From: a virus | Direction: 5' to 3' (one strand) | Length of the DNA: 64,000 nt | Virus record (IMG/VR): IMGVR_UViG_3300046694_000315 | Location: 1-64,000 of that record | Shown here: piece after piece, positions 139-64,000 of the stretch | Layout of the letters: each line of letters starts with the position of its first letter | How positions within the stretch are numbered: position 1 is the stretch's first letter | Made by a program: the position numbers and the translations under genes | Notes under the pieces: generated by a model | Databases searched by the model: none | Seen by the model: the letters and a program-made list of their open reading frames with translations, nothing else | Told to the model about the DNA's origin: nothing

Positions 139-973
139 TGATGAAGAGGGGGACCTCCTTTCCGCACGAGTCGTGCGTGAACTTGACATCATTGTACTGA
201 GGGCCCGGCTGCTTTTCCTCAATGGCATCGAGGATGCGCTTGCGGTCGAGAAGGCCCAGAGCACGGGCGAAGTCGGGATTTCCCGTGACGGCGTTTTCAC
301 TGCCATCGGCCTCGACTACGGAAATGAGGCAGCGGGAAATCAGGAGCGTGTTCTGCTCGGATTCCGTGGCGCGGTCGACGACGGCGAGGACGGCGTCCTG
401 GTCGGCGCCGATGGGAAGCCGGACGTAGGCCTTTCGACCCCTGCGGAGTTCGACTTCGAAGACACGGTCGGCGGGGTCGGCCAATCGCCGTACGGGGATC
501 TCGTCGAGGGTGACGGACAGCCGGAACTCCTCGCCGCAGTGCGGGCAGGAGTAGCGGTCCCAGACGATCTCGTCGCCGTAGGTGGCTCGCCGGATCTCCA
601 GCAGGAGCGTGTCGCGGTCGCCGAGCAGGAGATTGCTGAGCAGGGCGGGGCTGGCCTTCTGGTCTCCCACGGAGACGGTGCCGCTGGCGAGGAGGGTGGA
701 GATGAACTTGCCGATACCGCCGTTGCGGGCCTTGGTGATGGCCTCCTCGTCGCCACCGTTCAGTTCACGTACCTCGGCGTCGTAGCGGGCGTTGGCGAAG
801 TCGTTGCCCGAAACGAAACCGCCCGGCAGGCGGAACTGGCCACCTGCCGGGACTGCGATCTCGGGCTTGGCGACCTCGGCCCCCTGGGAGAGCAATGCAG
901 CGATGGCAGCATTTGCCTGACCAGGGTTGGAGAGAGGGTTGGAGAACCCCTCGGTATGAAGGTCGTTTGCCAC
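110..973 (-). CDS. T4 gp26-like baseplate hub / tail assembly chaperone
   Basis: Contains LLLGDRDTLLLEIRRATYG and CPHCG. Lies directly downstream of the tail tube gene. Confidence 0.7.
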   Translation of the reverse strand: MANDLHTEGFSNPLSNPGQANAAIAALLSQGAEVAKPEIAVPAGGQFRLPGGFVSGNDFANARYDAEVRELNGGDEEAITKARNGGIGKFISTLLASGTVSVGDQKASPALLSNLLLGDRDTLLLEIRRATYGDEIVWDRYSCPHCGEEFRLSVTLDEIPVRRLADPADRVFEVELRRGRKAYVRLPIGADQDAVLAVVDRATESEQNTLLISRCLISVVEADGSENAVTGNPDFARALGLLDRKRILDAIEEKQPGPQYNDVKFTHDSCGKEVPLFISAGDLFQGL

Positions 974-1009
974 TGGTTTTGCTCCTAGTCGAGTCGGTCG
1001 ATTCCGCTA

Positions 1010-1561
1010 TTAGAAACTAACGGAAGACGAGCCGACACTGTTAGCCAACTTGAACTCGAAACCCTCGTGGGCGAGGGTCATCTGCTGGACGATGATCGCG
1101 TTGGCGCCAGCGTCCAGGTCCGAGAAGGCGACCGCCGTGGGCCACGCGTTGTAGACGCGGAATGCGGCCTTGGCGGGAGTGGTGCCGGAAGTGACCGGGT
1201 GGTCGAGCACCTTGATGTCGACCATGTGCCGGAATTCCGCACCGGCCTTTCCGTTTCCGGTGCCCTGGATGACGGTGAACAACTGCCGCATCCAGTCCAT
1301 CATCTGGGAGTCGCCGACAGCGAGTCCCTTGGAAAGGGTGATGGGGGCGAAGTCGCTCTGCCCCGGCATCTTCTGGGTCGTAGTGTTCATTCCGCCCTCA
1401 CGGTACGGAATCACCTCGGTCGTGACGTTCAGACCCGAGACGGACATGAATCCCATTCGGGCGAAACCCTTGATGCCCGGGTGCTGGATCTGGACCTGGA
1501 ACTTGAAATTCCGCAAGGGATCGGAAGCGATATGTCCGACGGTGGACGTAGTCGTAGCCAT
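1010..1561 (-). CDS. Tail tube protein (T4 gp19 family)
   Basis: Motifs DPLRNFKF, GFMSVSGL, YREGG, KMPG, ITLSKG and NAWP. Follows the sheath gene. Confidence 0.92.
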   Translation of the reverse strand: MATTTSTVGHIASDPLRNFKFQVQIQHPGIKGFARMGFMSVSGLNVTTEVIPYREGGMNTTTQKMPGQSDFAPITLSKGLAVGDSQMMDWMRQLFTVIQGTGNGKAGAEFRHMVDIKVLDHPVTSGTTPAKAAFRVYNAWPTAVAFSDLDAGANAIIVQQMTLAHEGFEFKLANSVGSSSVSF

Positions 1562-1575
1562 CAGTGGGTTACCTC

Positions 1576-3890: not shown

Positions 3891-4409
3891 TCAGGACTTC
3901 TGGGACCAGCGCGAGAACTGAGCATCGTTGACCAGCTCGTCCGGTTTCATCTGGACGCATTCCAGGCCGACGATGATGTCCCGGTTCTGGATCTGCCCGA
4001 GGATCGAAATCGACGTGACGCGAAATACCGAGTCGTCGTAGACGATCCGGTCGGTCAGGTACTTCTGGTGGTCGATGTCCTGGTCGGTGAACCCCATCTT
4101 CCGCAGTGCGTCGAAGGACGCGGTGACGGAGAGGTTGTCCACCGTGTACAGGCCCTGGGTCGTGTCGTGGGCCGGGCCCTGGTTGTGGACCACGTGCAGG
4201 GCGGGGATCCGGTAGGGGCCGACGAAGATCTTGCCCTGGCCGGTGCCCTCGTCGTAGAGGTCGTCGCCGTCGGGGTCGGTGTGGGAGAAGCGGTAGTACT
4301 CCACCCGCTCCCCGATCTCCGTCTGGCGCCCGCGCAGGGTCGCCATGATGTCCGTGGTCTCGTAGTTGGCGTTGAAGCGGCCGTGCGTCTTCCAGTCGAG
4401 GCGTCCCAT
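3891..4409 (-). CDS. Putative head closure / neck protein
   Basis: Start MGRLDWK at 4409 overlaps the upstream stop (TGATG). Contains DDLYDEG and DRIVYD, and sits in the neck-gene position. Confidence 0.55.
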   Translation of the reverse strand: MGRLDWKTHGRFNANYETTDIMATLRGRQTEIGERVEYYRFSHTDPDGDDLYDEGTGQGKIFVGPYRIPALHVVHNQGPAHDTTQGLYTVDNLSVTASFDALRKMGFTDQDIDHQKYLTDRIVYDDSVFRVTSISILGQIQNRDIIVGLECVQMKPDELVNDAQFSRWSQKS

Positions 4410-5224
4410 CAGTAGCCCCAGGATCCGAAGACGCTGGAGGGGATGCCAGACTCGTCGTCGTTCTGGTGGCCGGGGCCGATGGGAGGCAGGATGCGCTGCG
4501 GCAGGGAGTGGTCGTCGTACTCGCGCTCGCGGAAGAGCGGCACGAGGCGGCCGGTCGTGCGGGAGACGCGGCGCAGGTTGGTGACCTCGATCGAGTACAG
4601 GCCGACGCCCAACTTCTCGCACAGGGTCTGGTACCGCTCGGTGAGCATGCCGATCTGCGTCTGGATCTGGGCGAAGCGCTGGCCTCGGTCGACGGAGGTG
4701 CCGTCCGAGGTCTGGACGTTGATGTCGGTGGCCGCGTCGGTGGACAGCGCCCACATGGCCTCGGTGCACGCGAGGAGCACCACGAGGGCGTCCTCCTCGG
4801 CCGGAAGGTTGTCGACTCCCACCGGGGCCTGGTCGTACTTGATGAAGCCGTTGTCGTCCTTGTACCGGGTGGAGATGGTCCGGCCCCGGGTGTGCTGGGC
4901 GACGGCGTCGTTGAGGTAGATGTCCAGTTCGTCGTCGGAGAACAGGCCGTAGGAGGATCCCGACACCAGCAGCAGCGCGTCGAGCGCGAGGGCCTGGGTC
5001 AGGTCGAGGATGCCATTGAGTTCGTCGAGGACGTAGTCGGCGGGGGTGCTCAGCGCGGTCTGCTGGCCCCCCGAGATATGAAGCACTTCGAGGCCGGTCA
5101 CGTTGTTCGCGCTCAGTTCGTACTGTGCGACGTCCCCTGTGCCCCGGATGGTGTCGCGGAACGGCTGGAGCCGGTCGCCCAGCTCGCTGCGTACCCGCGT
5201 GCGCAGTTCTTCGAGAGTTGCCAT
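4409..5224 (-). CDS. Putative head-tail adaptor
   Basis: Contains LRTRVRSELGD and FSDDELDIYL, similar to adaptor proteins. Position after the capsid genes fits. Confidence 0.55.
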   Translation of the reverse strand: MATLEELRTRVRSELGDRLQPFRDTIRGTGDVAQYELSANNVTGLEVLHISGGQQTALSTPADYVLDELNGILDLTQALALDALLLVSGSSYGLFSDDELDIYLNDAVAQHTRGRTISTRYKDDNGFIKYDQAPVGVDNLPAEEDALVVLLACTEAMWALSTDAATDINVQTSDGTSVDRGQRFAQIQTQIGMLTERYQTLCEKLGVGLYSIEVTNLRRVSRTTGRLVPLFREREYDDHSLPQRILPPIGPGHQNDDESGIPSSVFGSWGY

Positions 5225-7531: not shown

Positions 7532-8380
7532 TTACGAGTACAGTCCACGCTGGTTCTGGGCTGCCTGACCGACGCCCAACTGGCCCCGAATCTTGGCGTA
7601 CTCCGACATAGGCATGTTCTGAAGGTCAGAAAGGGAGTACGACTTGTGCCCCGGATCAGTGTCCATAGGTCCGGTGGTGGAATAGCCGGTGGGGCTCACA
7701 CCACGCATGGAGGCTCGCTGCTGAATTGCTGCCTGCTGGACCGACTCCAGGATAGCCTGGGTCTTGGCCTTGACGGTATTGAGCGAGTTCTCCACCTCCT
7801 CCGGCGTATTACCGCCGACGAAGTCGAGAAGTTCCGGAGCGATATTCTCGCTCTCCTCGCCGACCCGTCGCTGGATGTAGGACTGGAGGCTGTTGAACTC
7901 CTGCTCCTTCTGGAACAGAAGTCGCTCCTTCTCGAACTGCTGGAGACGCTGGTTCCACTCCTGCTCCTTGACGGCGAGCAGTTCCTTGGCCGACATGTCT
8001 TCCTCGGCCTTGGCCTTGGCGGCCTCCTGGGCCTGGCGCTGACGCTCGGACTCCTGAGCCTGCGCGGCCTCACGGGCCTTGCGCTGCTCTTCGATCTCGG
8101 CGAGGAAGGTCTTGTTCTGCTCCTCCACGCTCTGGAGGCGCTTGTACAACTTGTCCTTCTCCTCCTGCCGCGCCTTCTGGATGTCCTCGACGGTGAAGCG
8201 AGGCTCAGCGGGCGGGGTGGCAGGCGGCTCAACGACAGCGGCCGGGACGACGATGACGGGGTCGCCACCTTCACCGGGCTGCGGAGCCCCACCTGCGATG
8301 GGGAAGATCGGACGGCCGTCCTTGCGGTGGCCAAGTACGGTGCTGGCGGGCACCGAAATGCCCTGGGTATGAAGCGACAT
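7532..8380 (-). CDS. Capsid scaffolding protein
   Basis: Coiled-coil protein with KARQEEKDKLY and a C-terminal MSEYAKIR. Lies between portal and capsid. Confidence 0.8.
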   Translation of the reverse strand: MSLHTQGISVPASTVLGHRKDGRPIFPIAGGAPQPGEGGDPVIVVPAAVVEPPATPPAEPRFTVEDIQKARQEEKDKLYKRLQSVEEQNKTFLAEIEEQRKAREAAQAQESERQRQAQEAAKAKAEEDMSAKELLAVKEQEWNQRLQQFEKERLLFQKEQEFNSLQSYIQRRVGEESENIAPELLDFVGGNTPEEVENSLNTVKAKTQAILESVQQAAIQQRASMRGVSPTGYSTTGPMDTDPGHKSYSLSDLQNMPMSEYAKIRGQLGVGQAAQNQRGLYS

Positions 8381-16959: not shown

Positions 16960-16960
16960 A

Positions 16961-50475: not shown

Positions 50476-50488
50476 GATGTGCTCCTGC

Positions 50489-51481: not shown

Positions 51482-51483
51482 GG

Positions 51484-51726
51484 TCAGTAGTCCTCATCCC
51501 ATCGCTCCCCCGCGTACGTGGGGTCGAAGCCTGCCGGGGGCACGTCGGAGAAGGGGGCGTACTTGCGTACGATCTCCTCCTGCTTCTTCAGCCGCGCCGT
51601 CCAGTGGGTGGCGCAGCGCGGGAAGGACTGGCCGGTGCCGGACAGCGGGTCGCGGTACTCCACGGGGCCGCTGCACTCGCCCGTGTGGTCCTCCAGGCAC
51701 TTCGGCTCTTCGTGCTGCTCGCTCAC
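51484..51726 (-). CDS. Hypothetical protein
   Basis: CL.....C.G.VEYR..LSGTG..FPRC..H and FDPTYAGERWD. Confidence 0.65.
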   Translation of the reverse strand: MSEQHEEPKCLEDHTGECSGPVEYRDPLSGTGQSFPRCATHWTARLKKQEEIVRKYAPFSDVPPAGFDPTYAGERWDEDY

Positions 51727-51965
51727 TTCGGCTCCGTCTCGCGCAGGTGCTGCTCTCCGGCCGCGACGTCGCCCCACTGGGCACCGTTCTCGGCGTGGGC
51801 CAGGATCTCCTCGGCGGGGGCGTAGCCGGTCTGCTCGTCCACGCTCTTGAAGACGCCCGCGTTGTCCAACGTCTCCAGTGCGGTGATGGCGCGCTCGCTG
51901 TTGTCGCCGTCCCAGCCCTTGCGCAGCCAGGCCAGCGCCTCGATGACGTCGTTGCTGTATGTCAT
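51723..51965 (-). CDS. Hypothetical protein
   Basis: GAGGAG RBS. Confidence 0.55.
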   Translation of the reverse strand: MTYSNDVIEALAWLRKGWDGDNSERAITALETLDNAGVFKSVDEQTGYAPAEEILAHAENGAQWGDVAAGEQHLRETEPK

Positions 51966-51967
51966 GG

Positions 51968-52372
51968 TCAGTTCTCCTCGTCGATGATCTCGATGACGTC
52001 CGTGCGGGACAGCATCTTCGTCGCCGCGTTGTGTCGGGCGTTCGCCTGTACCTGCACGATGCCGCCGTTCTCGACGCGGGACGTACGCAGCCAGGAGAAG
52101 GTGTCTCCGCGTACCTTGCGAACGGCCGCGAGGAACGCGTCGAAGCCGACCTGCTCCAGGGTGCCTCCGGCGGCGTCGCGGATCTCCAGGAACGCCACTG
52201 CGGTCGCTTCGGCGTTGGTGACGGCGTCCAGCACGTGCGGGGAGGTCATGCGGCTGCCGATGTTGAGCGGCGCGCGCAGCAGCTCAGCGAAGTCGTTGCG
52301 GGCCTTCTCGGCCTCCTTGACGGCGTCGCTGATGGTCCGCTCGATGTACCCGGCGGTGGCCTTGGCGTCCAT
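51968..52372 (-). CDS. Hypothetical protein
   Basis: AGGAG RBS. Confidence 0.6.
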   Translation of the reverse strand: MDAKATAGYIERTISDAVKEAEKARNDFAELLRAPLNIGSRMTSPHVLDAVTNAEATAVAFLEIRDAAGGTLEQVGFDAFLAAVRKVRGDTFSWLRTSRVENGGIVQVQANARHNAATKMLSRTDVIEIIDEEN

Positions 52373-52588
52373 GGGTTACTCCTGGTCTCGTATCGCTGCG
52401 TGCTTGGCAGTCTTGCGGGTGCGCTGCTTGCGGGGGCGGGAATCGTGTCCTCCGGCCGCTCCGCTGCGCCGACGTTCCTGCACGGCGCGGATGTGCTCGG
52501 GGTCCTGCTGGGCGTGCATGGGTGCCTCCTGGGGCTGGTACGGGAGATACCAGGTTATTGGTCCTCCCGTACCGCTTCCCAACTACGG

Positions 52589-53455
52589 CTACCTGCGGTC
52601 GGCGCGCTTCTTGGCCTCGGCGAGGACGGTCTCGGTGTCCTTGCCCTCCTTGTGGGCGACGGCCTTGGCGACGTCGTCCAGGGACTCCTTGCGGTAGGAG
52701 GGGTGCGCGCCGCCCTTGTTCCAGAAGTAGTAGTCCGTGAGCCAGCCACGGGCCGCGTGCAGGGTCTCCAGGGTGTCGTACGCGTCGTGGGCCGGGTGGA
52801 CCTTGACGACCACGCCGTTGCGGACGACCTGGCGCTCGGGGTAGTGGCCCTTGAAGACCTTCAGCGGGGTGCCGTCGGGGTTGGCGATGGCCTTGGCGGC
52901 CTTCTTCGCCTCGCGCTCGGCCTTCTTGGCTTCGCGCTCCAGGCGGGCAGCCTTCTTGTCGACGGACTCCAGCCGGGTCTTGCGCTTGAGGGTGTCGGTG
53001 GGGGCCCAGGGGAAGCAGCGGGTGCATGCCTTCTCCCCGGCCAGCTCGACGAGGTCCTCGGCCGTCATGCCGGACTGCTCGACCAGCCACGCGTACTGGG
53101 TGGTGGGGAAGCAGGTGTCGCAGTACTGGTCCTTGTGGACGTGGCCGTTGGTGTTGTCGACGAGGTAGTACCGGGTCCAGCGGCGCGAGTGGTACCTGGC
53201 CTCGCGGGGGTAGATCTCGCCCTGGAGGATCTCCTGGATGCGCTCCTGGAGGGTCTCGATCTCGGCGACCAGCTCGGCGCGGCGCTCCGGCGAGCGGCTC
53301 GGCAGGAGGGAGTCGTAGGAGCCGGGCTCGGTGTCGTCGATGATGTTGATGAACTGCTGGGCGCGGTGCTGCTGGGCGGTCAGGTCGGCGGTCTTGACGT
53401 AGGCCGCGTACAGCGCGGTGTCGATCTCGGCCGGGGTGGCGTTGGTGAGGTCCAT
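52589..53455 (-). CDS. Conserved actinophage hypothetical protein (Zn-binding)
   Basis: W.RY.LV.N.NGHVH....C.TC...C..CFP.AP; leader and promoter at 53496-53524. Confidence 0.7.
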   Translation of the reverse strand: MDLTNATPAEIDTALYAAYVKTADLTAQQHRAQQFINIIDDTEPGSYDSLLPSRSPERRAELVAEIETLQERIQEILQGEIYPREARYHSRRWTRYYLVDNTNGHVHKDQYCDTCFPTTQYAWLVEQSGMTAEDLVELAGEKACTRCFPWAPTDTLKRKTRLESVDKKAARLEREAKKAEREAKKAAKAIANPDGTPLKVFKGHYPERQVVRNGVVVKVHPAHDAYDTLETLHAARGWLTDYYFWNKGGAHPSYRKESLDDVAKAVAHKEGKDTETVLAEAKKRADRR

Positions 53456-53510
53456 CGTGTTGCCTCCTGGTGTGGAGCGGTTGGTGACAGGTACGACCTT
53501 ACGGGGGCGC

Positions 53511-53846
53511 CTACTGCTTGTCAAGCGAAATGGGGTTACCGCTTGCGTCGATGTACTGCTCGATGTCGTAGCCCATGTTCAGGCTGTTCAGCCGCTTCGC
53601 GCCGATCGACTTCACGCGCAGTTCCAGGCGCTTGGTCCAGTCGGCGACGTCGGCCGGGGAGACCGGACCGATCTCGCACTGGCGCAGCCAGAGGATGGGG
53701 TCGAAGCGGTCGCTGGTGCCGGTGAGGGCGTCGGCGATGTTGTAGGCGATGTTGCGGCGGGCGTTGAAGTCCTGGTCGTCGGAGTCGGCGATGGCTGCGG
53801 ACAGGGTCTCGTAGTCGCTGCGGCTCATGTTGCGGGGCGCGGGCAT
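53511..53846 (-). CDS. Hypothetical protein
   Basis: AGGAGG RBS; MSR.DY...RFD...W pattern. Confidence 0.55.
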   Translation of the reverse strand: MPAPRNMSRSDYETLSAAIADSDDQDFNARRNIAYNIADALTGTSDRFDPILWLRQCEIGPVSPADVADWTKRLELRVKSIGAKRLNSLNMGYDIEQYIDASGNPISLDKQ

Positions 53847-53949
53847 GGCGGGCTCCTCCTGGTGCGGGGATTGATGTTCGCGGGAACAGTACGGGCCGCC
53901 CGGCTCAGGTGTCGAGTCGGACGGCCCGTACGCAGGGGGTGCGTATGGA

Positions 53950-54183
53950 TCACGTGGTGGGGCGGGTCAGGTGGTAGAACTTGCTGCCGTGGACGCGGAT
54001 GGTGTACCGGGTCGCGTCGGAGGACTCCACGAGCCGCGCCCTGTCGTAGATGGCGAGGTCCTTCCATGCCTGCTCGGCATCGGCCGGGACCATCTGGGCC
54101 GAGCTGGGGTCGTAGCCCAGGATCTCGGTGAACTCTGCCTTGATCTGGAGCATCTTCTTCGAGCCCCGGGGGATGGTGCGCAT
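53950..54183 (-). CDS. Hypothetical protein
   Basis: AGGAG RBS. Confidence 0.55.
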   Translation of the reverse strand: MRTIPRGSKKMLQIKAEFTEILGYDPSSAQMVPADAEQAWKDLAIYDRARLVESSDATRYTIRVHGSKFYHLTRPTT

Positions 54184-54200
54184 GGGTGTCTCCTGTCTGT

Positions 54201-55055
54201 TCAGGCGGCGATGCGGGTGCGGCTGCCACCGATGGCGTGCTGGCTGCTGAGGCGGGCGGACTGCGCGGCGCTGTCTCCGGCGCGGCGGGCGGAGGTGCTG
54301 TAGGTGGTGCTGTTGGCGCCCTTCCAGGAGCCACGGGCCCTGGAGGTCTTCGAGTAGTAGTCGTGGACCTCCTTCTGCTTGTCCGCGAGGACGAGGGCGG
54401 CGGAGACCTCGATCTCGTACTCGACGCCGTTGTCCTTGCCGATGCTGGGGACGGTGTAGGTGTTCTTCTTGGCCTCCTCCAGGGCCTCCTGGCGGGCCGA
54501 CCACAGGCGGGAGGAGATGCGGCGGGTGAAGGCGTCGTAGAAGTTGGCGCGGGCGGTGCGGCCGTCCATGGGCTTGGTGACGGTCTGGTAGTCCCACTCG
54601 CCCCAGTACGCGTCCCAGACCTTCTTCTTGCCGGTCACCTGCTCCTTCTTGTACTCGCCGGTCTTCAGCCAGGCGTTGGCGGACTCGGTCATCTGCACGA
54701 GCAGGGAGGCGTAGAGGGCCTCGACGACCTCGATGTCGCTGGGCATCCCGAAGGCGATGACGTAGGTGGAGTTCATCGCGATGTTCAACTGGACGTCGTT
54801 GTTGTCGGCGACGGCCATGAACAGTTCGACCAGGCGGGCGTTGTTGTTCTTGCGGGGCTGGCCGATGGTGATGCGCTTGTGGGTGGGCTGCTCGCGCTGC
54901 TCCCGCTTGGCGGTGTGCTGGCGGGCTACGGCCAGGTCGATGCTGGTGAGGGTGGCCATGGCCTGCGCCTTGCGCATGTAGGCCTCGGCCTCTTCGGGGG
55001 TGGAGGCGTTCTCGGCCTTGTTGAGGATCTTGGCCAGCTTGTCGAGGGTGCTCAT
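54201..55055 (-). CDS. DUF2786 domain protein
   Basis: LDK..K.L.KAE..STPEEA.A...KAQ.M at the N-terminus; G..SD.E.V..LY.SL. Confidence 0.85.
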   Translation of the reverse strand: MSTLDKLAKILNKAENASTPEEAEAYMRKAQAMATLTSIDLAVARQHTAKREQREQPTHKRITIGQPRKNNNARLVELFMAVADNNDVQLNIAMNSTYVIAFGMPSDIEVVEALYASLLVQMTESANAWLKTGEYKKEQVTGKKKVWDAYWGEWDYQTVTKPMDGRTARANFYDAFTRRISSRLWSARQEALEEAKKNTYTVPSIGKDNGVEYEIEVSAALVLADKQKEVHDYYSKTSRARGSWKGANSTTYSTSARRAGDSAAQSARLSSQHAIGGSRTRIAA

Positions 55056-55143
55056 GTGGTGCTCCTCCTGGTGTGAGGCGGTTGGTGTGTGGTGAACGCT
55101 ACGGGCTCGGGGAACCCTTGTCAAGCGATTCCCCGAAGTCGTT

Positions 55144-55659
55144 TTACACGCTGGCGAGGCTGCCGAAGCGGACGCCGTGCTGGGCGTACGAGTCGGTGAG
55201 CAGGAGGCCGACCTCGGGGCCCATGACCTCGCGCACCATGTGCAGGAAGGTGCTGGCGAACGCGGGGCCGTGGGCCTCGCCGTGGTTGGCCAGGTGGTGG
55301 CTCAGTTCGTGCAGGATGACGATCTCCCGCAGGGCCCAGCCGCTGCTGTTCGTGCGGTCGGGGATGGCCAGGGTGCGGGTCAGGGGCTCGTAGTGGGCGA
55401 AGCGCCGTCCCGCCCGGCGTCGCACGTGGACCGGCAGGACGGTGCGCTCGGGCCACATGTCCTTGACCCAGTTGAGGCCGAGGACGGCGTCGATGTAGCG
55501 CTGGATGGACTCCAGGTCGCCGAACTTGCGCTCCAGGGGCACCAGCAGGCTGGAGCCGTAGAAGTCGAAGGTGGGCACGTCGGCCTTGGCGAGGGATTCG
55601 AGGATGTCGCGGACGAAGTACTCGGCGTCGTAGACGCGCTGGCGCTGGTTGTCTCGCAT
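55144..55659 (-). CDS. HEXXH metallohydrolase (TIGR04338 / Rv0185-like)
   Basis: RD.QR.RVY.AE, ERKF, AHYE, WALRE.V.LHELSHH and HG..F. Confidence 0.85.
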   Translation of the reverse strand: MRDNQRQRVYDAEYFVRDILESLAKADVPTFDFYGSSLLVPLERKFGDLESIQRYIDAVLGLNWVKDMWPERTVLPVHVRRRAGRRFAHYEPLTRTLAIPDRTNSSGWALREIVILHELSHHLANHGEAHGPAFASTFLHMVREVMGPEVGLLLTDSYAQHGVRFGSLASV

Positions 55660-55661
55660 GG

Positions 55662-56015
55662 TCAGACCTCCTTGCCGGTGAGGGCGGCGAGGACCCGGCG
55701 CTTGGCCTCGGCGAGGCCGTGCTGGAATCCCTCGGCGCGGATCACGGCACCGATGCGCGCGGCTTCGCGGCGGGCGCTGCGCTCGGGCATGCCTCCGTCC
55801 TCCAGCCGGACGGCGAGGTCGTTGATCTCCAACTGGGCGGTGCGGCCGTTGAGGCCGACGACGGGGCGGCCCTTGTCGCGGCCCGCGTTGTAGACGTCGT
55901 CGAGGGCGCGGCGCAGGTCGTCCATGTTGAGGTCGTCGCCCTGGCCCACGAGGTTGAAGACCTCGGTGTACTTGGCTTCGAGGGCGAGGTAGTCGCGGAC
56001 GCTGCTGTCGGCCAT
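55662..56015 (-). CDS. Hypothetical protein
   Basis: Leader, AGGAGG and a promoter at 56061-56088. Confidence 0.6.
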   Translation of the reverse strand: MADSSVRDYLALEAKYTEVFNLVGQGDDLNMDDLRRALDDVYNAGRDKGRPVVGLNGRTAQLEINDLAVRLEDGGMPERSARREAARIGAVIRAEGFQHGLAEAKRRVLAALTGKEV

Positions 56016-56165
56016 GTCGTGCTCCTCCTGTTGGGGGCGGTTGGTGTTTCGACATGGGAAACAATACTCAGGAAGCGATACTCGTCAAGCCGTATCCGGG
56101 AAGCAGTAAGCCGTGAGCTGCGTCACACGCGGCCCACGGCTTAACCTGGTTGACTTGCTCTGGAA

Positions 56166-56564
56166 TTACTTGCTAGATGTTGGCGTTTCCGTGACCGTTT
56201 CCTTCGGGCACGGAATCTTGACCTGCACGGAATGCGTGTGCGCCAGCCCGTATACGGGGGCGTACGGCGTGGCCGAGGACGTAGGTGCGGGCACTGCGGG
56301 CGAAGGCCCGACCACGAGCGATACCTTGCACGTGCCCGGGGATTCCGGCTTCGTTGCTTCCGGTGTCGGCTCGGGCAGATACCTGGTCACCGTTGACACG
56401 GGCTGCGGCGAGGAATCCCCTTCGTATTCCGGAGAATCCGACTGGGAATTCTCGGTATGAAGCCCGGGGAAATCCGACTGGGCAACCGCTGAGATCCCGA
56501 ATGCCGGTACGGCGAGAATTCCGATTGCCGCAAGGGCGACTTTGATGCGCTGGATTCCGTTCAT
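56166..56564 (-). CDS. Hypothetical secreted protein
   Basis: Signal-like N-terminus, Pro/Thr-rich. Confidence 0.5.
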   Translation of the reverse strand: MNGIQRIKVALAAIGILAVPAFGISAVAQSDFPGLHTENSQSDSPEYEGDSSPQPVSTVTRYLPEPTPEATKPESPGTCKVSLVVGPSPAVPAPTSSATPYAPVYGLAHTHSVQVKIPCPKETVTETPTSSK

Positions 56565-56722: not shown

Positions 56723-58261
56723 CTAACCTTCCTGGTTGATGTAAGTTGGTACGTCGACGATTTCGGCGTCGATGAAACCGGTAGAGGCTTCGATCATCCG
56801 GTCCGCCGAGAGAGGCCTGTCGAGCGCTGTCATCTGTTCCCCGGCGTCCCGGCCGAAGATACGGCTGATCATACCGGCCCCGCCGCCATTCCCCTTAGCC
56901 TCCAGTTTCACGGAGAAGGAGTCCTGCTCCAGTTCCGTCTTCACCTTCACGAGTTTCTGGAGCCGGTCGATCTCGCCGGAGAGGTTCGGATCCGCGTAGC
57001 CACCGGTCATATCCTCGACCATCTTCATGAAGAGGACCCGCTGCGCCTGCATCTCGATGAGCGAGTTCTGGAGCGACTGCATCTGCTGCTTGCTCTTCAC
57101 TTCGACCGGGATGTCGTACGCGCAGTTGGCATTCTGGTCGAAGGCCGGGCACTTCGAGGACAGGAAGCAGGACGAGCAGGCGCGCATGGACTGGCTGCGC
57201 ACGGTCAGGAGGGGGATGTCCCGCTCCTTGTTCACGCCGTCCTCGGGGTCGGTGTAGACCTCCTTCTCCTGCACCAGGCCGATGACCGGCAAGTTGGTAC
57301 GCGGGCGGTCTCTGCGGACGGCCGGAGTTGTCACCGGGTTGAGCGTTTTTCCGTCCTCCGTACCAACTTCGGTGCCCTGCATTTGAGAGAAACTCGAAAG
57401 TACCCCTCCGGCAGAAGTAGTAACTGCTTGGGCTTCCTGCGGCCGGTGCTGGTCGATCGAGGCCGCCAACTGCTGCCACGACCAGATGGTGAACCGCAGG
57501 ACCTCGTCGTTCTCTCCGGCCTCGATACGGTCGGCGTCGAAGCCCGCTTCGGTGAACAGAGTGCGGTGCCTTTTCCGCGCCTGGTCCTTGTACTTCTTCG
57601 GGTAGCGCTTCAATTCCCGGCCGGTCCACACAATGGTGTCACCGTACTGGGAAGGGGAAAGCCAGGACGTCGAGGCGACGCTGTCCCAGTTCACGGCAGC
57701 CATTTCCGCAGGCTTAGTCATGGCCACTCCGTGGAGTAGCGTGCCGTATTTCCGGGTGATCTCGTTGAGAACCGGGGTGAGATTCCGGCCGTCGAGATCC
57801 GTCTGCGTCACACCGACCCGCTTATACCTCTGGGCGAGTTTATCGAGTTCGTCGACTCCCCATTCCGAATGCCATATCGGAAGGAACTTGTCTTCCGGCA
57901 GGTCCTCGTAGAAGTCCTCTCGCCGGGCCTCGATCCATTCCCGTCCGAGAACGACAGCGTCGAACTCGGACACCATATGAAGGGAATCGATATTCTGCTG
58001 GACGAACGCTTCGTAATGCGCGGCGATGTCCTTCAGTTCGCCGATCGAGTACTTGTCGTCGTCGGCCTTGTTGACCGTGTAGGCGCCGGAGTCCAGGAAC
58101 ACCTTCTGGTTTTCGAGGTAGTTGTCCTCGATCAGCCAGGGGCGGGTGAACTTGGTCCGGCGCCGCAGGCCCATGTACGAGAGGGAGACGGTTTCGACGC
58201 CTTCCTCGGCCAGCATCTTGCGCCAGCCGGGAATCTCGGATCCGCCGAGGAAGAGGTGCAC
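56723..58261 (-). CDS. TGT/DpdA-like TIM-barrel domain fused to a Cys4 + helical C-terminal domain
   Basis: FLDSGAY, EFD, P.WH, HG.A.T and DSVASTSW, then CSSC.L...CP.F.....C.Y. Confidence 0.65.
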   Translation of the reverse strand: MHLFLGGSEIPGWRKMLAEEGVETVSLSYMGLRRRTKFTRPWLIEDNYLENQKVFLDSGAYTVNKADDDKYSIGELKDIAAHYEAFVQQNIDSLHMVSEFDAVVLGREWIEARREDFYEDLPEDKFLPIWHSEWGVDELDKLAQRYKRVGVTQTDLDGRNLTPVLNEITRKYGTLLHGVAMTKPAEMAAVNWDSVASTSWLSPSQYGDTIVWTGRELKRYPKKYKDQARKRHRTLFTEAGFDADRIEAGENDEVLRFTIWSWQQLAASIDQHRPQEAQAVTTSAGGVLSSFSQMQGTEVGTEDGKTLNPVTTPAVRRDRPRTNLPVIGLVQEKEVYTDPEDGVNKERDIPLLTVRSQSMRACSSCFLSSKCPAFDQNANCAYDIPVEVKSKQQMQSLQNSLIEMQAQRVLFMKMVEDMTGGYADPNLSGEIDRLQKLVKVKTELEQDSFSVKLEAKGNGGGAGMISRIFGRDAGEQMTALDRPLSADRMIEASTGFIDAEIVDVPTYINQEG

Positions 58262-58287
58262 GGTTTGGTTCTCCGAATCTGCTTGGG

Positions 58288-58971
58288 TTACTTCGGGGGC
58301 TGGACGGCGCTCTTGGGGAAGAGGCCGGGCTGGGTGACGCGGGGCTTCTTGGCGGCCGGAGCGCCTGCGGCGGGCTTCTGCCGGGGGCCCGGCGACGCGG
58401 CCATCCCGAACTGCTGCGGGGAGCGGACCTGGCTCGGGCCGAACAGTCCGGCCTGGACCACGCGCTGCGGCTTGGCGGCCGGTGGCGGCGTCTGCGGGGC
58501 CGACTGGACGGGGGTGCCAGAGGTGCTGGCGTGGGTGCCGAACGCGGAGTGGAAGTCGTCCCAGGCCCCGCCGGAGGGCTTGCTCTGCGCCTGGATGCCG
58601 TTCATCCGGGCGTTGAAGGTATGAAGGAGGTCGGAGGCCGCGCCGGAGTGCTGGGCATGCCAGGCGTCGAGGCTGGAGGAGTGGTCCTCGCGCACCCGCT
58701 GGATGTCGGCCTGGTTCTTGATGCCGTTGGCGATTCCCTCGCGGCTCATCACGCGAGCGTGCATGCTGCTGTCCTGGGCCGGGGCGCTCTGCTGGCCCTG
58801 TCCCTTGACGCGGATCTTGATGCGGGAGTTGGCGGGCTGCTGGCCGTTCTTGGCGTTCTCCAGGTCGCTGACGCGCTGCTCGACGCTGCGGCGCGAGCCG
58901 GGGAACTGGAGGGGCTGGAGGTAGCGGTCGCGGATCTGGGTCGCGATGGAATGGAAGACGGAGCCACTCAT
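58288..58971 (-). CDS. Low-complexity hypothetical protein
   Basis: Gln/Pro/Ala-rich, with GC3 bias. Confidence 0.55.
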   Translation of the reverse strand: MSGSVFHSIATQIRDRYLQPLQFPGSRRSVEQRVSDLENAKNGQQPANSRIKIRVKGQGQQSAPAQDSSMHARVMSREGIANGIKNQADIQRVREDHSSSLDAWHAQHSGAASDLLHTFNARMNGIQAQSKPSGGAWDDFHSAFGTHASTSGTPVQSAPQTPPPAAKPQRVVQAGLFGPSQVRSPQQFGMAASPGPRQKPAAGAPAAKKPRVTQPGLFPKSAVQPPK

Positions 58972-59267
58972 GGCCGTATGTCCCTTCTCAGGAAGTAGAG
59001 GTAGCGGTGTCCGGCCACGAAGGAGGCCAGGAAGCCGACGCTGATCAGCGACCGCGCGGACGTGCTCGACGCCAGGAACACGGCGGTGAAGACGGTCACG
59101 TTGGTGCTGTAGACGAAGAGGGTGGCGGCGAGCCATCGCTCTGCGGCGCCGAGCTGGCGCCAGGCGGGGATCGTCGCGCGCAGAAGCAGGGCCGCGAACG
59201 CTGCTCCGGTGAGGACGGAGAGGATGCGGGCGATGCCGATGAACAGGACATAGCCGTTGCTGGTCAC
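58968..59267 (-). CDS. Three-TM membrane protein
   Basis: Three hydrophobic helices; GTGA and ATGA overlaps. Confidence 0.55.
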   Translation of the reverse strand: MTSNGYVLFIGIARILSVLTGAAFAALLLRATIPAWRQLGAAERWLAATLFVYSTNVTVFTAVFLASSTSARSLISVGFLASFVAGHRYLYFLRRDIRP

Positions 59268-59758
59268 AGGATCTCCATGTGTGGGCGCTGATCTTCTTCG
59301 CGTAGTGCTCGCTGCCTCTCCACTTCGTCCACCAGGGCCGACCAGGGGGTGACGCTCTCCTGGTAGTCGGGGCGGAAGCGTGGGGAGGAGTAGTTGGGGT
59401 GTAGGTAGTTGAGGACCCCGACCCCGTGGGCCATGACGTGGGCGGCGATCTCCGGGTCGGGCTCGATCAGCAGCTCGACGTGGCATCCGGCCTGCCGTAG
59501 CCGGGAGATCTGGCGCATCCTTCGTTCGGCCGGGTCCTCGGGATCCCGCAGGTGCGCGGGGATGAGGTAGGGGTGCTTGTTGAAGCCGTTGACGCGCAGC
59601 CAGTGCTTGACCGGCTCGACGTCGGTGTTGTCGGTGATGAGGGCGACCCGGTAGGTCTCCATCAGGCCCCAGTACAGGCGCTGGCCCTGGTGGATGACGG
59701 CTTCGCCGACCTCCTTGGACAGCACGCCCTCAACGACGATGGCGACGGTTGCAGTCAT
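59264..59758 (-). CDS. Degenerate HAD-fold protein
   Basis: VAIVVEGVL (DxDGVL-like), ALIT, and LLIEPDP......GV. Confidence 0.5.
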   Translation of the reverse strand: MTATVAIVVEGVLSKEVGEAVIHQGQRLYWGLMETYRVALITDNTDVEPVKHWLRVNGFNKHPYLIPAHLRDPEDPAERRMRQISRLRQAGCHVELLIEPDPEIAAHVMAHGVGVLNYLHPNYSSPRFRPDYQESVTPWSALVDEVERQRALREEDQRPHMEIL

Positions 59759-59764
59759 CGTCGA

Positions 59765-60628
59765 TCACCCGTGCCGGTGTTCGATCAGGCCCTCACGGTG
59801 GGCCTTCTCATGGGCGCGGACGGCCTTGCGCTGGTCGTGCTCCAGGAAGCGGGGACTCATCCCGTGGGCCTGGATCAGGTGCTCGTGCACGGCGTCGAGG
59901 TTGGTGTGGGTCTTGATCTTGGGTTCGACGGGGGCGGTCTTCTCGAACTGGTCGAGGTTGAGGACGTGGGCCCCGACATGGGTGTCTCCCCGGCCGCGCG
60001 CTTCGGCGAGCCGGTGGTGCGCGTCGGCGACGTACGGTGTGCCGCCCTGGATGACCACCTTCACGTGCGGGTGGTCGGGGGCCAGCGGGCCGGTGATGTA
60101 GGAGTGTGAGCCGGTCTCGTACGAGGTCTGGCCGGTGTGCAGGACGGCGCTGGTGCTGATGCTCTGGAACTTGGCGTGCTTGTTCCAGAAGGCCTCGTTG
60201 CCGTGGCTCATCTGCGGGCCGTGCTTCTCGTACCACTTGTCGTCGATCTTGGTGTCGACGACGTTGCCGTGCCCGTCGAGGTGCCCGAACTGCTGCGGGG
60301 AGTGCGGCGGGCCCATGACCATCTGCCCCTCGGACTGGGGGTAGTTGGTGCGCTCCTCGTCATGGATGAGCGTCTCGTCACGGGCGGCGCCGAGCGAGGT
60401 GACCTTGGTGAACATCCCGCCGCTGTGAGGCGTGGGATGCCCGATATGAAGTGCGCCGGGCTTGGCCTGGAGATGCAGCGGCGTGTCCTTGGTCAGGTGG
60501 TAGGCCGCGCGGAGCGCGGTCTGCTTCTGGCCTTGGGCGGAGACCCTGCTGCCCAGGGGGACCGGGAGGGCGGTCTGCTCGAACTGTGGACCGGCGGTGT
60601 CCGGCTTACTGCGGGAAGGTGCCATCAC
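59765..60628 (-). CDS. Protein with a ParB/Srx-like motif
   Basis: YVADAHHRL.EA..RG...V (DGHHR-like). Confidence 0.55.
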   Translation of the reverse strand: MMAPSRSKPDTAGPQFEQTALPVPLGSRVSAQGQKQTALRAAYHLTKDTPLHLQAKPGALHIGHPTPHSGGMFTKVTSLGAARDETLIHDEERTNYPQSEGQMVMGPPHSPQQFGHLDGHGNVVDTKIDDKWYEKHGPQMSHGNEAFWNKHAKFQSISTSAVLHTGQTSYETGSHSYITGPLAPDHPHVKVVIQGGTPYVADAHHRLAEARGRGDTHVGAHVLNLDQFEKTAPVEPKIKTHTNLDAVHEHLIQAHGMSPRFLEHDQRKAVRAHEKAHREGLIEHRHG

Positions 60629-61617
60629 GCTCTCCTGTAGGGGGTGTTCCAGAGGGCCGCCTTGGCCAGGGCCACGGCAGCGTCATCGAGGGGAGCCCCG
60701 TACAGATCCGTTTCTTGTGCTTTGCGGGCCTCGGTCTCCGCCGTGGCGAGGGCGCTCAGGGCCTGGACGGTCCCGGCTTCCTTGTGTGCCTGCCAGCGGA
60801 AGTTGTAGTAGTCGCCGTAGCCCTCGCCGGTCCCGGAGAAGGCCATGCGGCGGCTGAGGTGGATGTCGTCGAAGAGGGCCTTGGCCTGCTCGGTGACGAT
60901 GCGCTGGGAGTCCATGGCGTTCTTCCAGGCCGGGCTGTTCTCCACGGACTGGGCGGCCTGGGAGCGCAGCAGGCCGTAGCGCTTGACGAGCAGCTCGGCC
61001 TGCTTCTGCTCGGCTTCGACGGCGGTCTTCCACTCGGCCGGGTAGAGGCTGCGCGGGTCGTCCGGCAGCTCGGGCGGGGTGATGTCCCAGCGGTCGGCGG
61101 TGAGGTTGTAGGCCGCGTAGGGGTGAATTGCGGCGATGCTGTGCGAGGTCGTACCCGGGTTCAGGTAGTAGGTGACCTCGTACGTCTGGCCGTGGAAGTT
61201 CGTGTTCGCGGTGGACGGCCACAGGTTCCGCTTGAGGTCTGTGTTCAGGAGGTCCGCGAATTCCGTTTCGCTGATTCCCTGGAAGGTGGGATTGGCCTCG
61301 TAGAACTTCGGGAAGTCGACGCCGAAGAGGACGTCGAGGTCGCCGTTTCCTCGGTCTCCGGCCCACTGGTAGGAGATGCCGGAGCCTGCGAGCCAGGCCG
61401 CTGACCAGGTGCGGGCGCCCTTGTAGCGGGCGTCGAGGAAGTTGTTCAGGATGCCGAGGATGTGGTCGCGAACGTCGGGCTTGATGTGCTTGCCGTCGAA
61501 GATGTGCGGGTCCAGTCCGCGCTGCGGCGTGCTGAAATAGCCGGATGCCCCCGCGTGAATGTCGGGCTGTGCTCCCTGGCTTACTGCTCGATTGAGGTAG
61601 AACTCGTATCCGGCCAT
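60625..61617 (-). CDS. Pol-beta superfamily nucleotidyltransferase
   Basis: LAGSG.SY.W......DLDV (GS + DxD) and a later EVTYY; TAGAAT 7 nt before the ATG. Confidence 0.7.
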   Translation of the reverse strand: MAGYEFYLNRAVSQGAQPDIHAGASGYFSTPQRGLDPHIFDGKHIKPDVRDHILGILNNFLDARYKGARTWSAAWLAGSGISYQWAGDRGNGDLDVLFGVDFPKFYEANPTFQGISETEFADLLNTDLKRNLWPSTANTNFHGQTYEVTYYLNPGTTSHSIAAIHPYAAYNLTADRWDITPPELPDDPRSLYPAEWKTAVEAEQKQAELLVKRYGLLRSQAAQSVENSPAWKNAMDSQRIVTEQAKALFDDIHLSRRMAFSGTGEGYGDYYNFRWQAHKEAGTVQALSALATAETEARKAQETDLYGAPLDDAAVALAKAALWNTPYRRA

Positions 61618-61694: not shown

Positions 61695-62084
61695 TCAGAG
61701 TTTGAGAGAAGCGCGGAGTTGGGCCTCCTGGGCCTGCCGCTGCATCGCCTGTCCGACCATCATCATCTGCTGCTGGGTGCGCTGGGCCGTCTCCATGACG
61801 GTGAGGTCCTTCTGGACCACGGCGACGGCGCCGTAGATGTCGTCGGGGGTGGCTCCTCGCCGGGGGACGAACTTCTGGGTCAGGTCGCTGGTGGCGACGA
61901 CTGCGCCGTCCAGGCCGACCGCGACGAGGAACGCCGTGGTGACCGGGGTGCCGATCTCGTCTTCGGCGGGCGGGTGCTCGTCCGCCATCTTGGCCAGGGC
62001 CTCACGCTGCTCGGGCGTGAGGTCGTCAGTATGAAGCGCGCTGCTGTCGCTGCTGGGGGTCTGGCCGAGGATCGGGATGCTCAT
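61695..62084 (-). CDS. Hypothetical protein
   Basis: GGAG RBS and codon bias. Confidence 0.6.
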   Translation of the reverse strand: MSIPILGQTPSSDSSALHTDDLTPEQREALAKMADEHPPAEDEIGTPVTTAFLVAVGLDGAVVATSDLTQKFVPRRGATPDDIYGAVAVVQKDLTVMETAQRTQQQMMMVGQAMQRQAQEAQLRASLKL

Positions 62085-62598: not shown

Positions 62599-62612
62599 GG
62601 TGTCCCTTCGAA

Positions 62613-63230
62613 TCAGTACCAGTTAGTGGCCTGGGAGTGTGCCCAGGCGGTGCAGGGTGTCCCGTATACCGCCTCGATGTATCCGAGTCCCCATCGTATC
62701 TGGGTTATTGCATTGGTTTGCCAATCCGAACCGGCGGAAGCCATCTTCGAGGCCGGTAGTGCCTGGGGTATTCCGTAGGCGCCGGAGGAGGGGTTGGTGG
62801 CGGTGACGCGCCAGTTGGACTCCTTCTCCCACAGCAGGTCCAGGCAGGCGAACTGGGTGGCTCCGACCTTGGCGAGGGCGTAGGCCTTCGGGGAGGTCGT
62901 GGCGACGACGGTGTGCGTCGGCGTTGGGGACGCGCGGGGCGTCTTCGTCGGTTTTGGCTGGTGGGAGTGGGTGGCGCTGGCGGTCGGCTTGGGGGTCTTG
63001 GTGACCTTGGGGGTGGGCGCCGGAGCCGCCGAGGTATGAAGCGAGGGACGCGTCAGGGACCGGTTGGCGGTGTCCGGAGCTGCTCGGGTGACGGTCGGCG
63101 CTGCGGCGATGCCGCTGTAGTCGACGGGCTGGCCCTGGCCGGTGATGGAGATGGCCGATACGACGGAAGCCGTAACGAGGATGGCGGACGCTGCTGCTGC
63201 TGCGACGCGGTAGCGCATGCGGTGCCTCAC
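62613..63230 (-). CDS. Secreted lytic transglycosylase (SLT-like)
   Basis: Signal peptide and Pro/Thr linker, then W.KES.W...A.N.SSGAYGIPQALP..KM...NA.TQI.WGL.YI...YG.PC.AW......NWY. Confidence 0.88.
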   Translation of the reverse strand: MRHRMRYRVAAAAASAILVTASVVSAISITGQGQPVDYSGIAAAPTVTRAAPDTANRSLTRPSLHTSAAPAPTPKVTKTPKPTASATHSHQPKPTKTPRASPTPTHTVVATTSPKAYALAKVGATQFACLDLLWEKESNWRVTATNPSSGAYGIPQALPASKMASAGSDWQTNAITQIRWGLGYIEAVYGTPCTAWAHSQATNWY

Positions 63231-63310
63231 TTTCGGGGACGTTCTTGCTCTTAGAACGTAACATCCCCACTACGGCATTGGAAGCCGTAATGGGGATGAC
63301 GTTGTTCAGA

Positions 63311-64000
63311 TCACGCCTTGACGGTGAACAGACCGCTGGCCTTGGCCAACTTCGTCAGCGATGCCAGGCCCGGAGCACCCTTGGCGTCGTCGCCCGTGTA
63401 GCCGCTCTTCCGGCGGAAGAGGTCGTAGCCGTCCTGCGTCTTGGTGCCCCAGGAGCCGTCCACCCACCGCGCGTCGAGGTAGCCCAGCGCCGACAGCGCC
63501 TTCTCGACGAGCAGCACGTCCGCCTTGTGGGTCGTGTGGCCGGTGGCCGCCGGGAGGTCCGCCTTGCGGGCCGCGACGACGTTGGAGACGTCCACGACCG
63601 GCTTCGCAGCGGGCTTCGGAGCCGGAGCCGGGGCGGCCGGAGCCGCCGGGGTATGAAGCGAAGGGTTCTGCGACTTCCACGCCGGGTCGGCCGACTCGAT
63701 GCCGTCCGGGTATTCCGGGTAGCCATATCCGTAGACATGCGCGTCGGTCCGGACGTGGGTCTTGGCGTAAACGCCATCCCCCTCTGCCGAACCGTTTATG
63801 TTCGTATTGCCTTCTACGCTGAAGACGTGAGTCGCGTCGAATCCGATAACGACCCCGGTGTGCTCACCTCCGCCCGGCCCGTAGAAGATTTGACTGCCGA
63901 TCGCGGGGTACGCACTGAATCGCTTCCGGGCCTTGTACCAGGAAACGCCGGTCGCGCACGAGGCGGTAACCGGGTAGGAGCCCTTCGGCAGGCCCGCCGT
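63311..64000 (-). CDS. Endolysin, partial (CHAP-type domain, Pro/Ala linker, peptidoglycan-binding domain)
   Basis: Frame is open to the window edge. GEHTGVV...VEGNT...GDGVY, then VEKAL..LGY.....DG.WG..T. Confidence 0.8.
   Translation of the reverse strand, partial: TAGLPKGSYPVTASCATGVSWYKARKRFSAYPAIGSQIFYGPGGGEHTGVVIGFDATHVFSVEGNTNINGSAEGDGVYAKTHVRTDAHVYGYGYPEYPDGIESADPAWKSQNPSLHTPAAPAAPAPAPKPAAKPVVDVSNVVAARKADLPAATGHTTHKADVLLVEKALSALGYLDARWVDGSWGTKTQDGYDLFRRKSGYTGDDAKGAPGLASLTKLAKASGLFTVKA

Follow-up and report, generated by a model that had tools for sequence, protein, structure and literature searches.

A gene-oriented, frame-locked nucleotide word with two one-letter alleles in a temperate Streptomyces phage and its relatives: a candidate signal read in step with translation

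Temperate actinophages are known to carry short asymmetric words in tens of copies, oriented with transcription; these stoperators have been described in the Cluster A phages (L5 gp71) and in R4, and their consensus varies between related phages at sites that remain syntenic (PMC6550527, PMC10276819). A word that is similar in these respects is present in the 64,000-nucleotide stretch analyzed here (hereafter 'the window'), which covers bases 1-64000 of an IMG/VR phage record (IMGVR_UViG_3300046694_000315) that is complete, has terminal repeats and measures 106,046 bp. Its core is CTTCATA, and among sister phages it exists in two versions, CTTCATAC in the phage studied and CTTAATAC in others. 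All of its copies in called genes are sense to the gene and fall in the same reading frame; we know of no described system in which a dispersed nucleotide word has to stand in one fixed frame. The word is a genome-wide signal under strong selection at the nucleotide level, and is neither a peptide nor a codon-usage effect. The evidence points to a signal that has not been described previously, and a literature search for the word found nothing relevant.

A first-pass annotation, made from the letters of the window alone, had reported 21 sense copies within genes, all read as CTT-CAT-AYN, and had suspected a nucleotide-level signal spread over the genome. These observations hold. CTTCATAY occurs 21 times in the window (20 minus-strand copies and one plus-strand copy), whereas dinucleotide shuffles lead one to expect 0.83 copies and never produced more than 3; the whole record has 42 minus-strand copies and a single plus-strand one. 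No other 7- or 8-mer on the sense strand approaches its degree of over-representation under Markov models of order 1 to 3. The sequence logo gives the full word as R-CTT-C-ATA-Y-C, that is, R at position -1, CTTCATA, Y and C, a site of about 9-10 nt whose information lies mainly between about -1 and +8, is weak from -3 to +11, and is nil beyond. All 38 copies in called genes encode LH[T/I/M]. Codon-order shuffles predict 0.05, 0.01 and 0.18 copies in frames 0, 1 and 2, and synonymous-codon shuffles that keep the proteins intact predict 1.5, 0 and 0.02, compared with 38, 0 and 0 observed, such that the enrichment survives the codon-aware null that the annotation had called for. Of 44 LH[TIM] tripeptides, 38 are written in motif codons, and LH[TI] would be expected only 5.7 times. 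Both the motif-codon use and the enrichment of the tripeptide itself imply that selection acts on the nucleotides, with the proteins bent to fit. The copies are moderately enriched near protein termini, with nine within 25 codons of the N-terminus (4.1 expected, P = 0.02) and eight within 17 codons of the C-terminus (2.8 expected, P = 0.006), which fits placement where proteins tolerate change. The footprint of an inserted element was ruled out as a source of the copies, in that alignments with distant homologues show substitutions.

Orientation and frame hold beyond the called genes of the window. Every copy in the record is sense to its open reading frame (ORF), the inverted one included (42 + 1 copies). 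Three copies outside the window, at 74618, 89898 and 102863, are apparently intergenic but in fact lie in mini-ORFs of 9-15 codons, each with a start codon of its own and an end that meets or overlaps the next gene's start. The mini-ORFs at 74618 and 89898 are kept in most relatives with drifting peptide sequence, that at 102863 was found in only two relatives and there as a longer ORF, and other genomes carry further motif-bearing mini-ORFs. When the frame is followed upstream from each sense copy in ten genomes, a start codon is met before any stop in 368 of 369 cases, which extends the annotation's observation to the rest of the genome and to related phages. Outside the early-type region discussed below, non-coding DNA amounts to about 12% by our own gene calls and would be expected to hold 5.2 sites. 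Not one untranslated site is found there (P = 0.004), all three non-genic copies being those in mini-ORFs.

We considered whether the lock on frame 0 might follow trivially from the letters of the word. Frames 1 and 2 were accessible: 12 peptides (seven [SPTA]-S-Y and five x-F-I) could have become copies in one of these frames by synonymous change alone, and none of the 12 is used, as against 36 of 39 LH[TI] peptides that are motif-coded. In the A-type word, CTTAATAC, the other frames would contain TAA or TTA-ATA, so that frame 0 is forced; the other frames of CTTCATAC are open, and by codon usage chance favours frame 2 (C-TTC-ATA-C). Since the C-type is probably ancestral, the TAA and TTA of the A-type word probably cannot explain the lock, and this explanation was judged insufficient, the C-specific gains being all in frame 0, although the root on which it depends is uncertain. 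The cost of ATA and TCA codons was likewise rejected as sole cause: both are present at about 1 per 1000 in all modules, and therefore do not forbid the other frames. A control is provided by the 10.7-Mb genome of the cultured Streptomyces sp. NPDC002088, which contains a complete C-type prophage (G016) with 44 copies, versus about 90 on both strands of the remaining chromosome. Among 40 of the latter that were sampled, none was sense in frame 0, three were sense in frame 2, 16 were antisense and 21 were non-coding or unclear; copies in the host chromosome are background only. Taken together, the unused proto-sites, the open frames of CTTCATAC and the host control suggest that frame 0 is probably a functional requirement.

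Comparison of relatives strengthened the case for a nucleotide-level signal through a concerted one-letter switch. Three genomes (G001, G002 and G004) whose terminases are 88-97% identical to that of the phage studied (G000) carry the same word, in 33-46 sense copies plus one antisense. Two others, G003 (a provirus of an isolate) and G005, are as close to G000 and contain almost no CTTCATAY; an unbiased k-mer search recovered CTTAATAC(C) instead, in 40 and 29 copies, respectively. Distant relatives (terminase 60-75% identical) yielded no comparable word. Across nine genomes we compared 85 orthologous site positions, of which 33 are common to both types, 32 are found only in the C-type, and 20 only in the A-type. 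The middle base is that of the genome's own type at 326 of 328 sites, and a His to Asn change has therefore occurred in many unrelated proteins, shared positions reading LHT in C-type and LNT in A-type genomes. Even a conserved ribonucleotide-reductase motif carries a type-switching site, where distant homologues have LRT or LKT. At C-only sites the other type has L-H-x in ordinary codons, and at A-only sites it has L-N-x in ordinary codons; new sites have been made by up to three amino-acid changes, for example VQV to LHI. Each type recruits peptides that already fit and also creates sites by several amino-acid changes. Among C-type genomes, the third-position T's of the motif are better conserved than flanking third positions (0.92 vs 0.75 in the comparison with G002, 0.84 vs 0.72 in that with G004). 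No third or fourth allele (CTTGATAC, CTTTATAC) was seen in 70 viral-contig loci and 9 genome loci. In a tree of 15 concatenated core proteins the outgroup joins at G004 and then G002, and the A-clade is sister to G000/G011/G001, a topology by which the C-type is probably ancestral.

The sole inverted copy, at 16843, is especially informative. The annotation had noted that it sits in a plus-strand gene and is again sense, and it is indeed in frame in the small gene 16813-16959. It is present in all relatives, those of the A-type having it as CTTAATAC, and its place is 5-13 codons from the start of a gene whose high GC content at third codon positions (GC3) is that of normal coding sequence, in frame in at least four sequence variants. 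Being conserved, type-switching, sense and in frame, it indicates that the word follows the direction of the gene and not the DNA strand. This bears directly on one option the annotation had raised, that of a polar DNA signal, which in the manner of Chi, KOPS or primase sites would serve replication, recombination or packaging. Such a signal would accord with a strand bias of 42:1, though nearly all genes share one strand, and with the SbcD-like, UvsX-like and helicase proteins that the phage encodes; set against these are the inverted copy, the frame lock, an 18-kb gap, and a density of 29 sites in 35 kb versus 6 in 29 kb, which is unlike a signal distributed per unit length. We consider it highly improbable. 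The same copy is the only type-switching complement of the word, and was examined as a possible antisense guide RNA. That candidate was dropped, as the plus-strand gene that the region encodes is genuine and high in GC3 (by eye, from its translation), and no TTGACA-like opposite-strand promoter was seen by eye between the upstream terminator and the copy. Mimicry of an anticodon loop or T-loop was also set aside; by eye, the A-type does not fit.

The copies are unevenly distributed. The stretch without coding copies that the annotation had placed between 37950 and 56450 is real, running from 37949 to 56454, and is probably the early/immunity region; G001, G002 and the NPDC002088 prophage show a gap of similar size in their site lists, and the one LH[TI] of this region is in ordinary codons. 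Elsewhere, the replication module holds 29 sites in about 35 kb, the block from 19 to 38 kb holds 10, and the structural genes hold 6 in 29 kb. Several promoter-like sites (Table 1) have their -35 box inside a palindrome, CTTGACAAG, and most have a half-site (GCAAG or TCAAG) about 25 nt upstream, in what is probably an operator system of the early and integrase genes. This palindromic, operator-like element of the early-type promoters differs from the word. Besides the coding copies, the annotation had listed an intergenic variant at 46908. That sequence, CTTCATAA at 46909-46916 (minus strand), just upstream of a promoter-like site, is unchanged in the A-type genome G005; it does not switch with type, and therefore resembles the family without belonging to it.

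The main rival to the reading proposed below is an intragenic, stoperator-like roadblock, in which a DNA-binding protein made by the phage in the lysogen binds the word and blocks elongating RNA polymerase in an orientation-dependent manner. Non-early genes would thereby be silenced, the C and A versions would represent two immunity specificities, and the frame lock would have arisen incidentally as sites were fitted into coding DNA. This would account for a temperate phage having about 43 asymmetric sites along its genome, all pointing in the direction of transcription, for their absence from a region with eight TTGACA-type promoter-like sites, some of them with an operator-like half-site, and for a site within the small integrase-divergent gene, which is possibly an excision factor. 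The one-base difference in consensus between sister phages at syntenic positions also has its counterpart in Cluster A stoperators (PMC6550527), and stoperator systems are present in the Streptomyces phages R4 and phiScoe (PMC10276819). Known stoperators are, however, mainly intergenic, whereas untranslated DNA here has 0 sites where 5.2 are expected, and neither the absolute frame lock nor the unused synonymous proto-sites are explained. The early-type promoters, moreover, have a different element, the palindromic one. No protein that covaries with word type was found in ten genomes, although such a comparison would miss a conserved protein altered at only a few residues, and no stoperator-type (L5/R4) repressor was recognized, the early-type region being without a repressor match in Pfam or PHROGs. 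On balance we regard a roadblock of this kind as rather unlikely, if a serious contender.

A signal on the non-template strand during transcription, whether a one-element promoter resembling those of T4 late genes or an ops-like site for pausing or loading of an antitermination factor, was also weighed. In favour of this, the word is one short, AT-rich element that points along transcription, and the 65 kb of site-bearing replication and structural genes contain one sense-strand CTTGAC match (at 80554, seemingly intragenic) versus eight in the site-free region. On the other hand, the logo carries no information beyond -3 to +11 and there is therefore no second element, a second promoter element being ruled out on these grounds. 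There is also no fixed distance to gene starts: only three sites lie within 60 nt of the next start (1.4 expected, P = 0.16), and copies occur 6 nt past a start codon and directly before a terminator-like hairpin, the latter being the copy at 21452-21459, which precedes a long GC-rich hairpin and then a T-run (by eye). No Sigma70_r2 match was found in the genome, although a divergent factor could escape, and no NusG-like protein was found. With the frame lock again unexplained, a signal of this sort seems improbable.

The search for a reader turned up a few candidates, all of which were rejected. A ProQ-C-like protein (41791-42174) is encoded in five C-type records (G000, G001, G002, G004 and G012) and in none of the A-type records searched, but the complete C-type genome G011 lacks it as well. 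The HicA-family protein (21445-21690, minus strand) and an unannotated 64-aa protein (26714-26908, minus strand) appeared linked to type in nine genomes, but the C-type G016 has the alleles of A-type genomes. These two genes are 5 kb apart, and across ten genomes they switch alleles jointly, whatever their neighbours do. Their covariation seems to be mutual and not with the word, and they may form a split toxin-antitoxin-like pair. The HicA-family protein has a GGNH motif with the catalytic-type GNH and is carried specifically by the motif clade. An AlphaFold model of the 64-aa protein (mean predicted local distance difference test score 82.5) has a beta-beta-alpha-beta topology and gave no significant fold match.

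These proteins are relevant to a further alternative, in which the word is an RNA site used independently of translation, with a phage RNA-binding protein or endoribonuclease, such as the HicA-like protein, processing, stabilizing or destroying non-early transcripts. All copies are sense, and the degenerate positions (R at -1, Y at +7 and Y at +8) admit transitions only, as expected for RNA-RNA or RNA-protein reading; the motif clade specifically possesses a HicA-family protein with GNH as well as an RNA repair module, which together with the tRNA cluster is found only in this clade. A reader indifferent to translation nevertheless leaves the frame lock and the mini-ORFs unexplained, many self-cleavage sites would be costly, and the HicA-like allele does not track type, as the prophage of NPDC002088 demonstrates. 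We think such an RNA site quite unlikely.

Given that the word requires the sense strand, a translated ORF and one reading frame, we propose that its reading takes place on the mRNA and is coupled to translation, whether the ribosome itself takes the three codons as one word or a factor on the translating ribosome does so, an interpretation that we favour tentatively and would call possible, short of probable. Reading at the ribosome was one of the options the annotation had listed, and the frame lock, the mini-ORFs and the absence of copies from untranslated DNA lend it support, to this tentative extent. R-CUU-(C/A)AU-AYC would then be a cis-acting signal marking genes outside the early-type region. 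By standard decoding rules, the U-ending codons CUU and CAU or AAU would be decoded through G-U wobble by tRNA-Leu(GAG), tRNA-His(GUG) or tRNA-Asn(GUU), and the word could constitute a programmed point of slow decoding or recognition at which pausing, cleavage, protection or licensing might follow. A phage-specific activity may gate, protect or process the marked messages, such that they are silent in the lysogen or are licensed after the early phase. In this connection, the sole type-linked gene is that for a tRNA-His(GUG), cognate to the central CAU codon, which is present in four of six C-type genomes (G000, G001, G011 and G016) and in none of three A-type genomes; tRNA-Asn(GUU) is present in all genomes with the tRNA cluster. 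The phage encodes tRNAs for Pro, Phe, Leu, Asn and His, and no suppressor. The tRNA-His has a long extra arm, for which we know of no precedent among tRNAs of this specificity. It is conceivable, though we hold it as doubtful, that the word is a translational cis-code of sense codons that is recognized only in frame and separates non-early genes from early and host messages, with a central codon open to re-assignment across a whole lineage (His CAU to Asn AAU) and a tRNA-His(GUG) that is kept only where the word has CAU.

Several points weigh against translational reading. No mechanism is known to us by which a word of 9-12 nt would be read in frame. Host tRNAs can decode CUU, CAU and AAU, all of them ordinary sense codons, and a hard translational gate is therefore not to be expected. 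R at -1 and Y at +7 and +8 suit recognition of a 10-12-nt site by protein or RNA as well as they suit reading by the ribosome. The link with tRNA-His amounts to one event of gain or loss, and two C-type genomes are without the tRNA. With about 43 sites for about 125 genes, and two sites in some genes, there is no rule of one site per gene. The rooting of the core-protein tree is open to long-branch attraction, and the gene trees are discordant. Finally, repressor-stoperator systems known in Streptomyces phages provide a solid prior for the rival at the level of DNA (PMC10276819).

The features referred to above are collected in Table 1. The phage itself is a temperate Streptomyces phage with a GC content of 65% and about 150 genes, nearly all on the minus strand. 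It is a myovirus by its recognizable tail sheath, portal, large terminase and tape-measure protein, and its nearest cultured phages are the Streptomyces myoviruses BRock, pSt2308 and LuckySocke (sheath identity 48%); close relatives exist as prophages of Streptomyces isolates, such as that in Streptomyces sp. NPDC002088. Genes for replication and repair include those for the SbcD-like exonuclease, DNA polymerase, a helicase, ribonucleotide reductase and a UvsX-like recombinase, and a DpdA/TGT-like enzyme and five tRNAs were also recognized. Integrases of both kinds, serine and tyrosine, are present. The tyrosine integrase (15631-16707) and serine integrase (17006-18472) stand in tandem (15631-18823), each with a small divergent gene beside it, and among the relatives compared the serine integrase was found elsewhere only in G002 (about 50% identity).

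Table 1. Copies of the word in the window and other features of the locus (strand relative to the window)
Feature	Position	Strand	Gene and context
Motif copy	954-961	-	Codons 5-7 (VAND-LHT) of gene 110-973; A-type relatives have CTTAATAC there
Motif copy, LHI	5076-5083	-	Gene 4409-5224; recent gain in the G000/G001/G011 lineage, others IQI or VQV
Motif copy	8367-8374	-	Codons 3-5 (MS-LHT) of gene 7532-8380; A-type LNT
Motif copy, sole inverted	16843-16850	+	Codons 11-13, in frame, of divergent small gene 16813-16959, upstream of tyrosine integrase 15631-16707
Motif copy, LHT	19438-19445	-	Gene 19212-19496; only C-type site in otherwise A-type G005
Motif copy, LHI-N-stop	21452-21459	-	C-terminus of HicA-like gene 21445-21690
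Motif copy, LHT	25958-25965	-	Codon 9 of MazG-like gene 25474-25989
Motif copy, LHI	26929-26936	-	Near C-terminus of gene 26895-27212
Motif copy, LHT	27701-27708	-	SbcD-like exonuclease 27190-28425; recent gain in the G000/G001/G011 lineage
Motif copy, LHT	28223-28230	-	Second copy in SbcD-like exonuclease 27190-28425
Motif copy, LHT	33012-33019	-	Polynucleotide kinase-phosphatase 32477-33346
Motif copy, LHT	34468-34475	-	RNA ligase 33699-34799
Motif copy, LHT	36766-36773	-	Gene 36306-36824
Motif copy, LHT-stop	37941-37948	-	Final codons of gene 37937-38206; last before the site-free region
Motif copy, LHT	56455-56462	-	In frame in ORF 56166-56564 (missed by the gene caller), with signal-peptide-like N-terminus
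Motif copy, LHM	57975-57982	-	DpdA/TGT-like gene 56723-58261; A-type LNM, distant relatives LAY or IDF
Motif copy, LHT	58619-58626	-	Gene 58288-58971
Motif copy, LHI	60444-60451	-	Gene 59765-60625
Motif copy, LHT	62029-62036	-	Gene 61695-62084
Motif copy, LHT	63034-63041	-	Low-complexity linker, gene 62613-63218
Motif copy, LHT	63651-63658	-	Low-complexity linker, gene 63311-64177
Stretch without any copy, 18.5 kb	37949-56454	-	Many small genes; eight TTGACA-type promoter-like sites, some with operator-like upstream half-site
Sigma-70-like promoter-like sites	56089, 55125, 53525, 50800, 49823, 46880, 42240, 39236, 32389, 31078, 30263, 23158, 16755	-	
tRNA, anticodon GUG (His)	28973-29058	-	G at -1, C73, long class-II-type variable arm, 86 nt; 48 bits against the Rfam tRNA model
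RNA repair module	32477-36306	-	Polynucleotide kinase-phosphatase, RNA ligase, RlaP nucleotidyltransferase

Some neighbouring features deserve mention in their own right. A riboswitch for cyclic di-AMP (ydaO/yuaA) lies within the tRNA cluster at 29900-30033 (minus strand), upstream of gene 29402-29761, with an Rfam score of 68 bits against a gathering threshold of 38. On the opposite strand, at 24324-25327 (plus), an XRE-HTH/DUF5753 gene and a DUF397 gene carry no motif copy; together they make up a WhiJ/BldB-like pair, typical of Streptomyces, and are probably expressed from the prophage. The DpdA/TGT-like gene heads an operon (56723-61617, minus strand) that is kept in distant, motif-less relatives too and may modify DNA with a 7-deazaguanine.

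If the word is indeed read in frame, this would be the first phage, to our knowledge, to mark a class of genes by a context of ordinary codons, as opposed to promoters, operators or recoded stops, and it would add a new layer of control hidden in protein-coding sequence. Were the word instead a roadblock on DNA, it would follow that a stoperator-type system can be written wholly inside genes, and that a switch of specificity can force a joint amino-acid change in dozens of proteins, including a conserved ribonucleotide-reductase motif. The system is directly testable, because the cultured Streptomyces sp. NPDC002088 carries a complete C-type prophage.

Placed beside the systems it most resembles, the word differs from each in specific ways. 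Stoperators are 13 nt long and mostly intergenic, one of them being the operator of the early lytic promoter, whereas the present word spans 9-10 nt, occurs only in ORFs and mini-ORFs and in one frame, lacks an operator copy at the early-type promoters, and has no cognate repressor that we could find. A different parallel is offered by phages with recoded stop codons, reportedly described by Borges et al. in 2022, in which TAG or TGA is read as sense in late genes with the help of a phage suppressor tRNA. There, too, an in-frame mark is concentrated in non-early genes and is missing from the early-type region, and here likewise a phage tRNA is cognate to the marked codon. The marked codons in our case are, however, the sense codons CTT, CAT/AAT and AYC, with an unchanged code and no suppressor tRNA, and what marks the genes is not one codon but three in fixed order, together with flanking bases. 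Control based on decoding of a rare in-frame codon is familiar from Streptomyces, where bldA (tRNA-Leu UAA) controls TTA-containing genes. The host genus is the same, and a subset of genes is similarly marked in frame; the phage itself is without TTA (0 among its 29,633 codons), as expected because its host is bldA-regulated. Unlike TTA, CUU and CAU/AAU should be read by constitutive tRNAs, the specificity resides in a context of about 10 nt, and sites are not limited to one per gene. The T4 late promoter, TATAAATA, is likewise a single AT-rich element, of 8 bp, found in tens of copies oriented with transcription and often within upstream coding sequence; the word, by contrast, has no positional relation to gene starts and a fixed frame, and no sigma-like factor was found. 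Chi and KOPS octamers are similarly over-represented, strand-biased 8-mers, but follow the replication strand and occur in all frames, where our inverted copy follows its gene. Lastly, the start-associated sequences of Cluster K mycobacteriophages lie immediately upstream of start codons, whereas the word is found inside ORFs, at any position.

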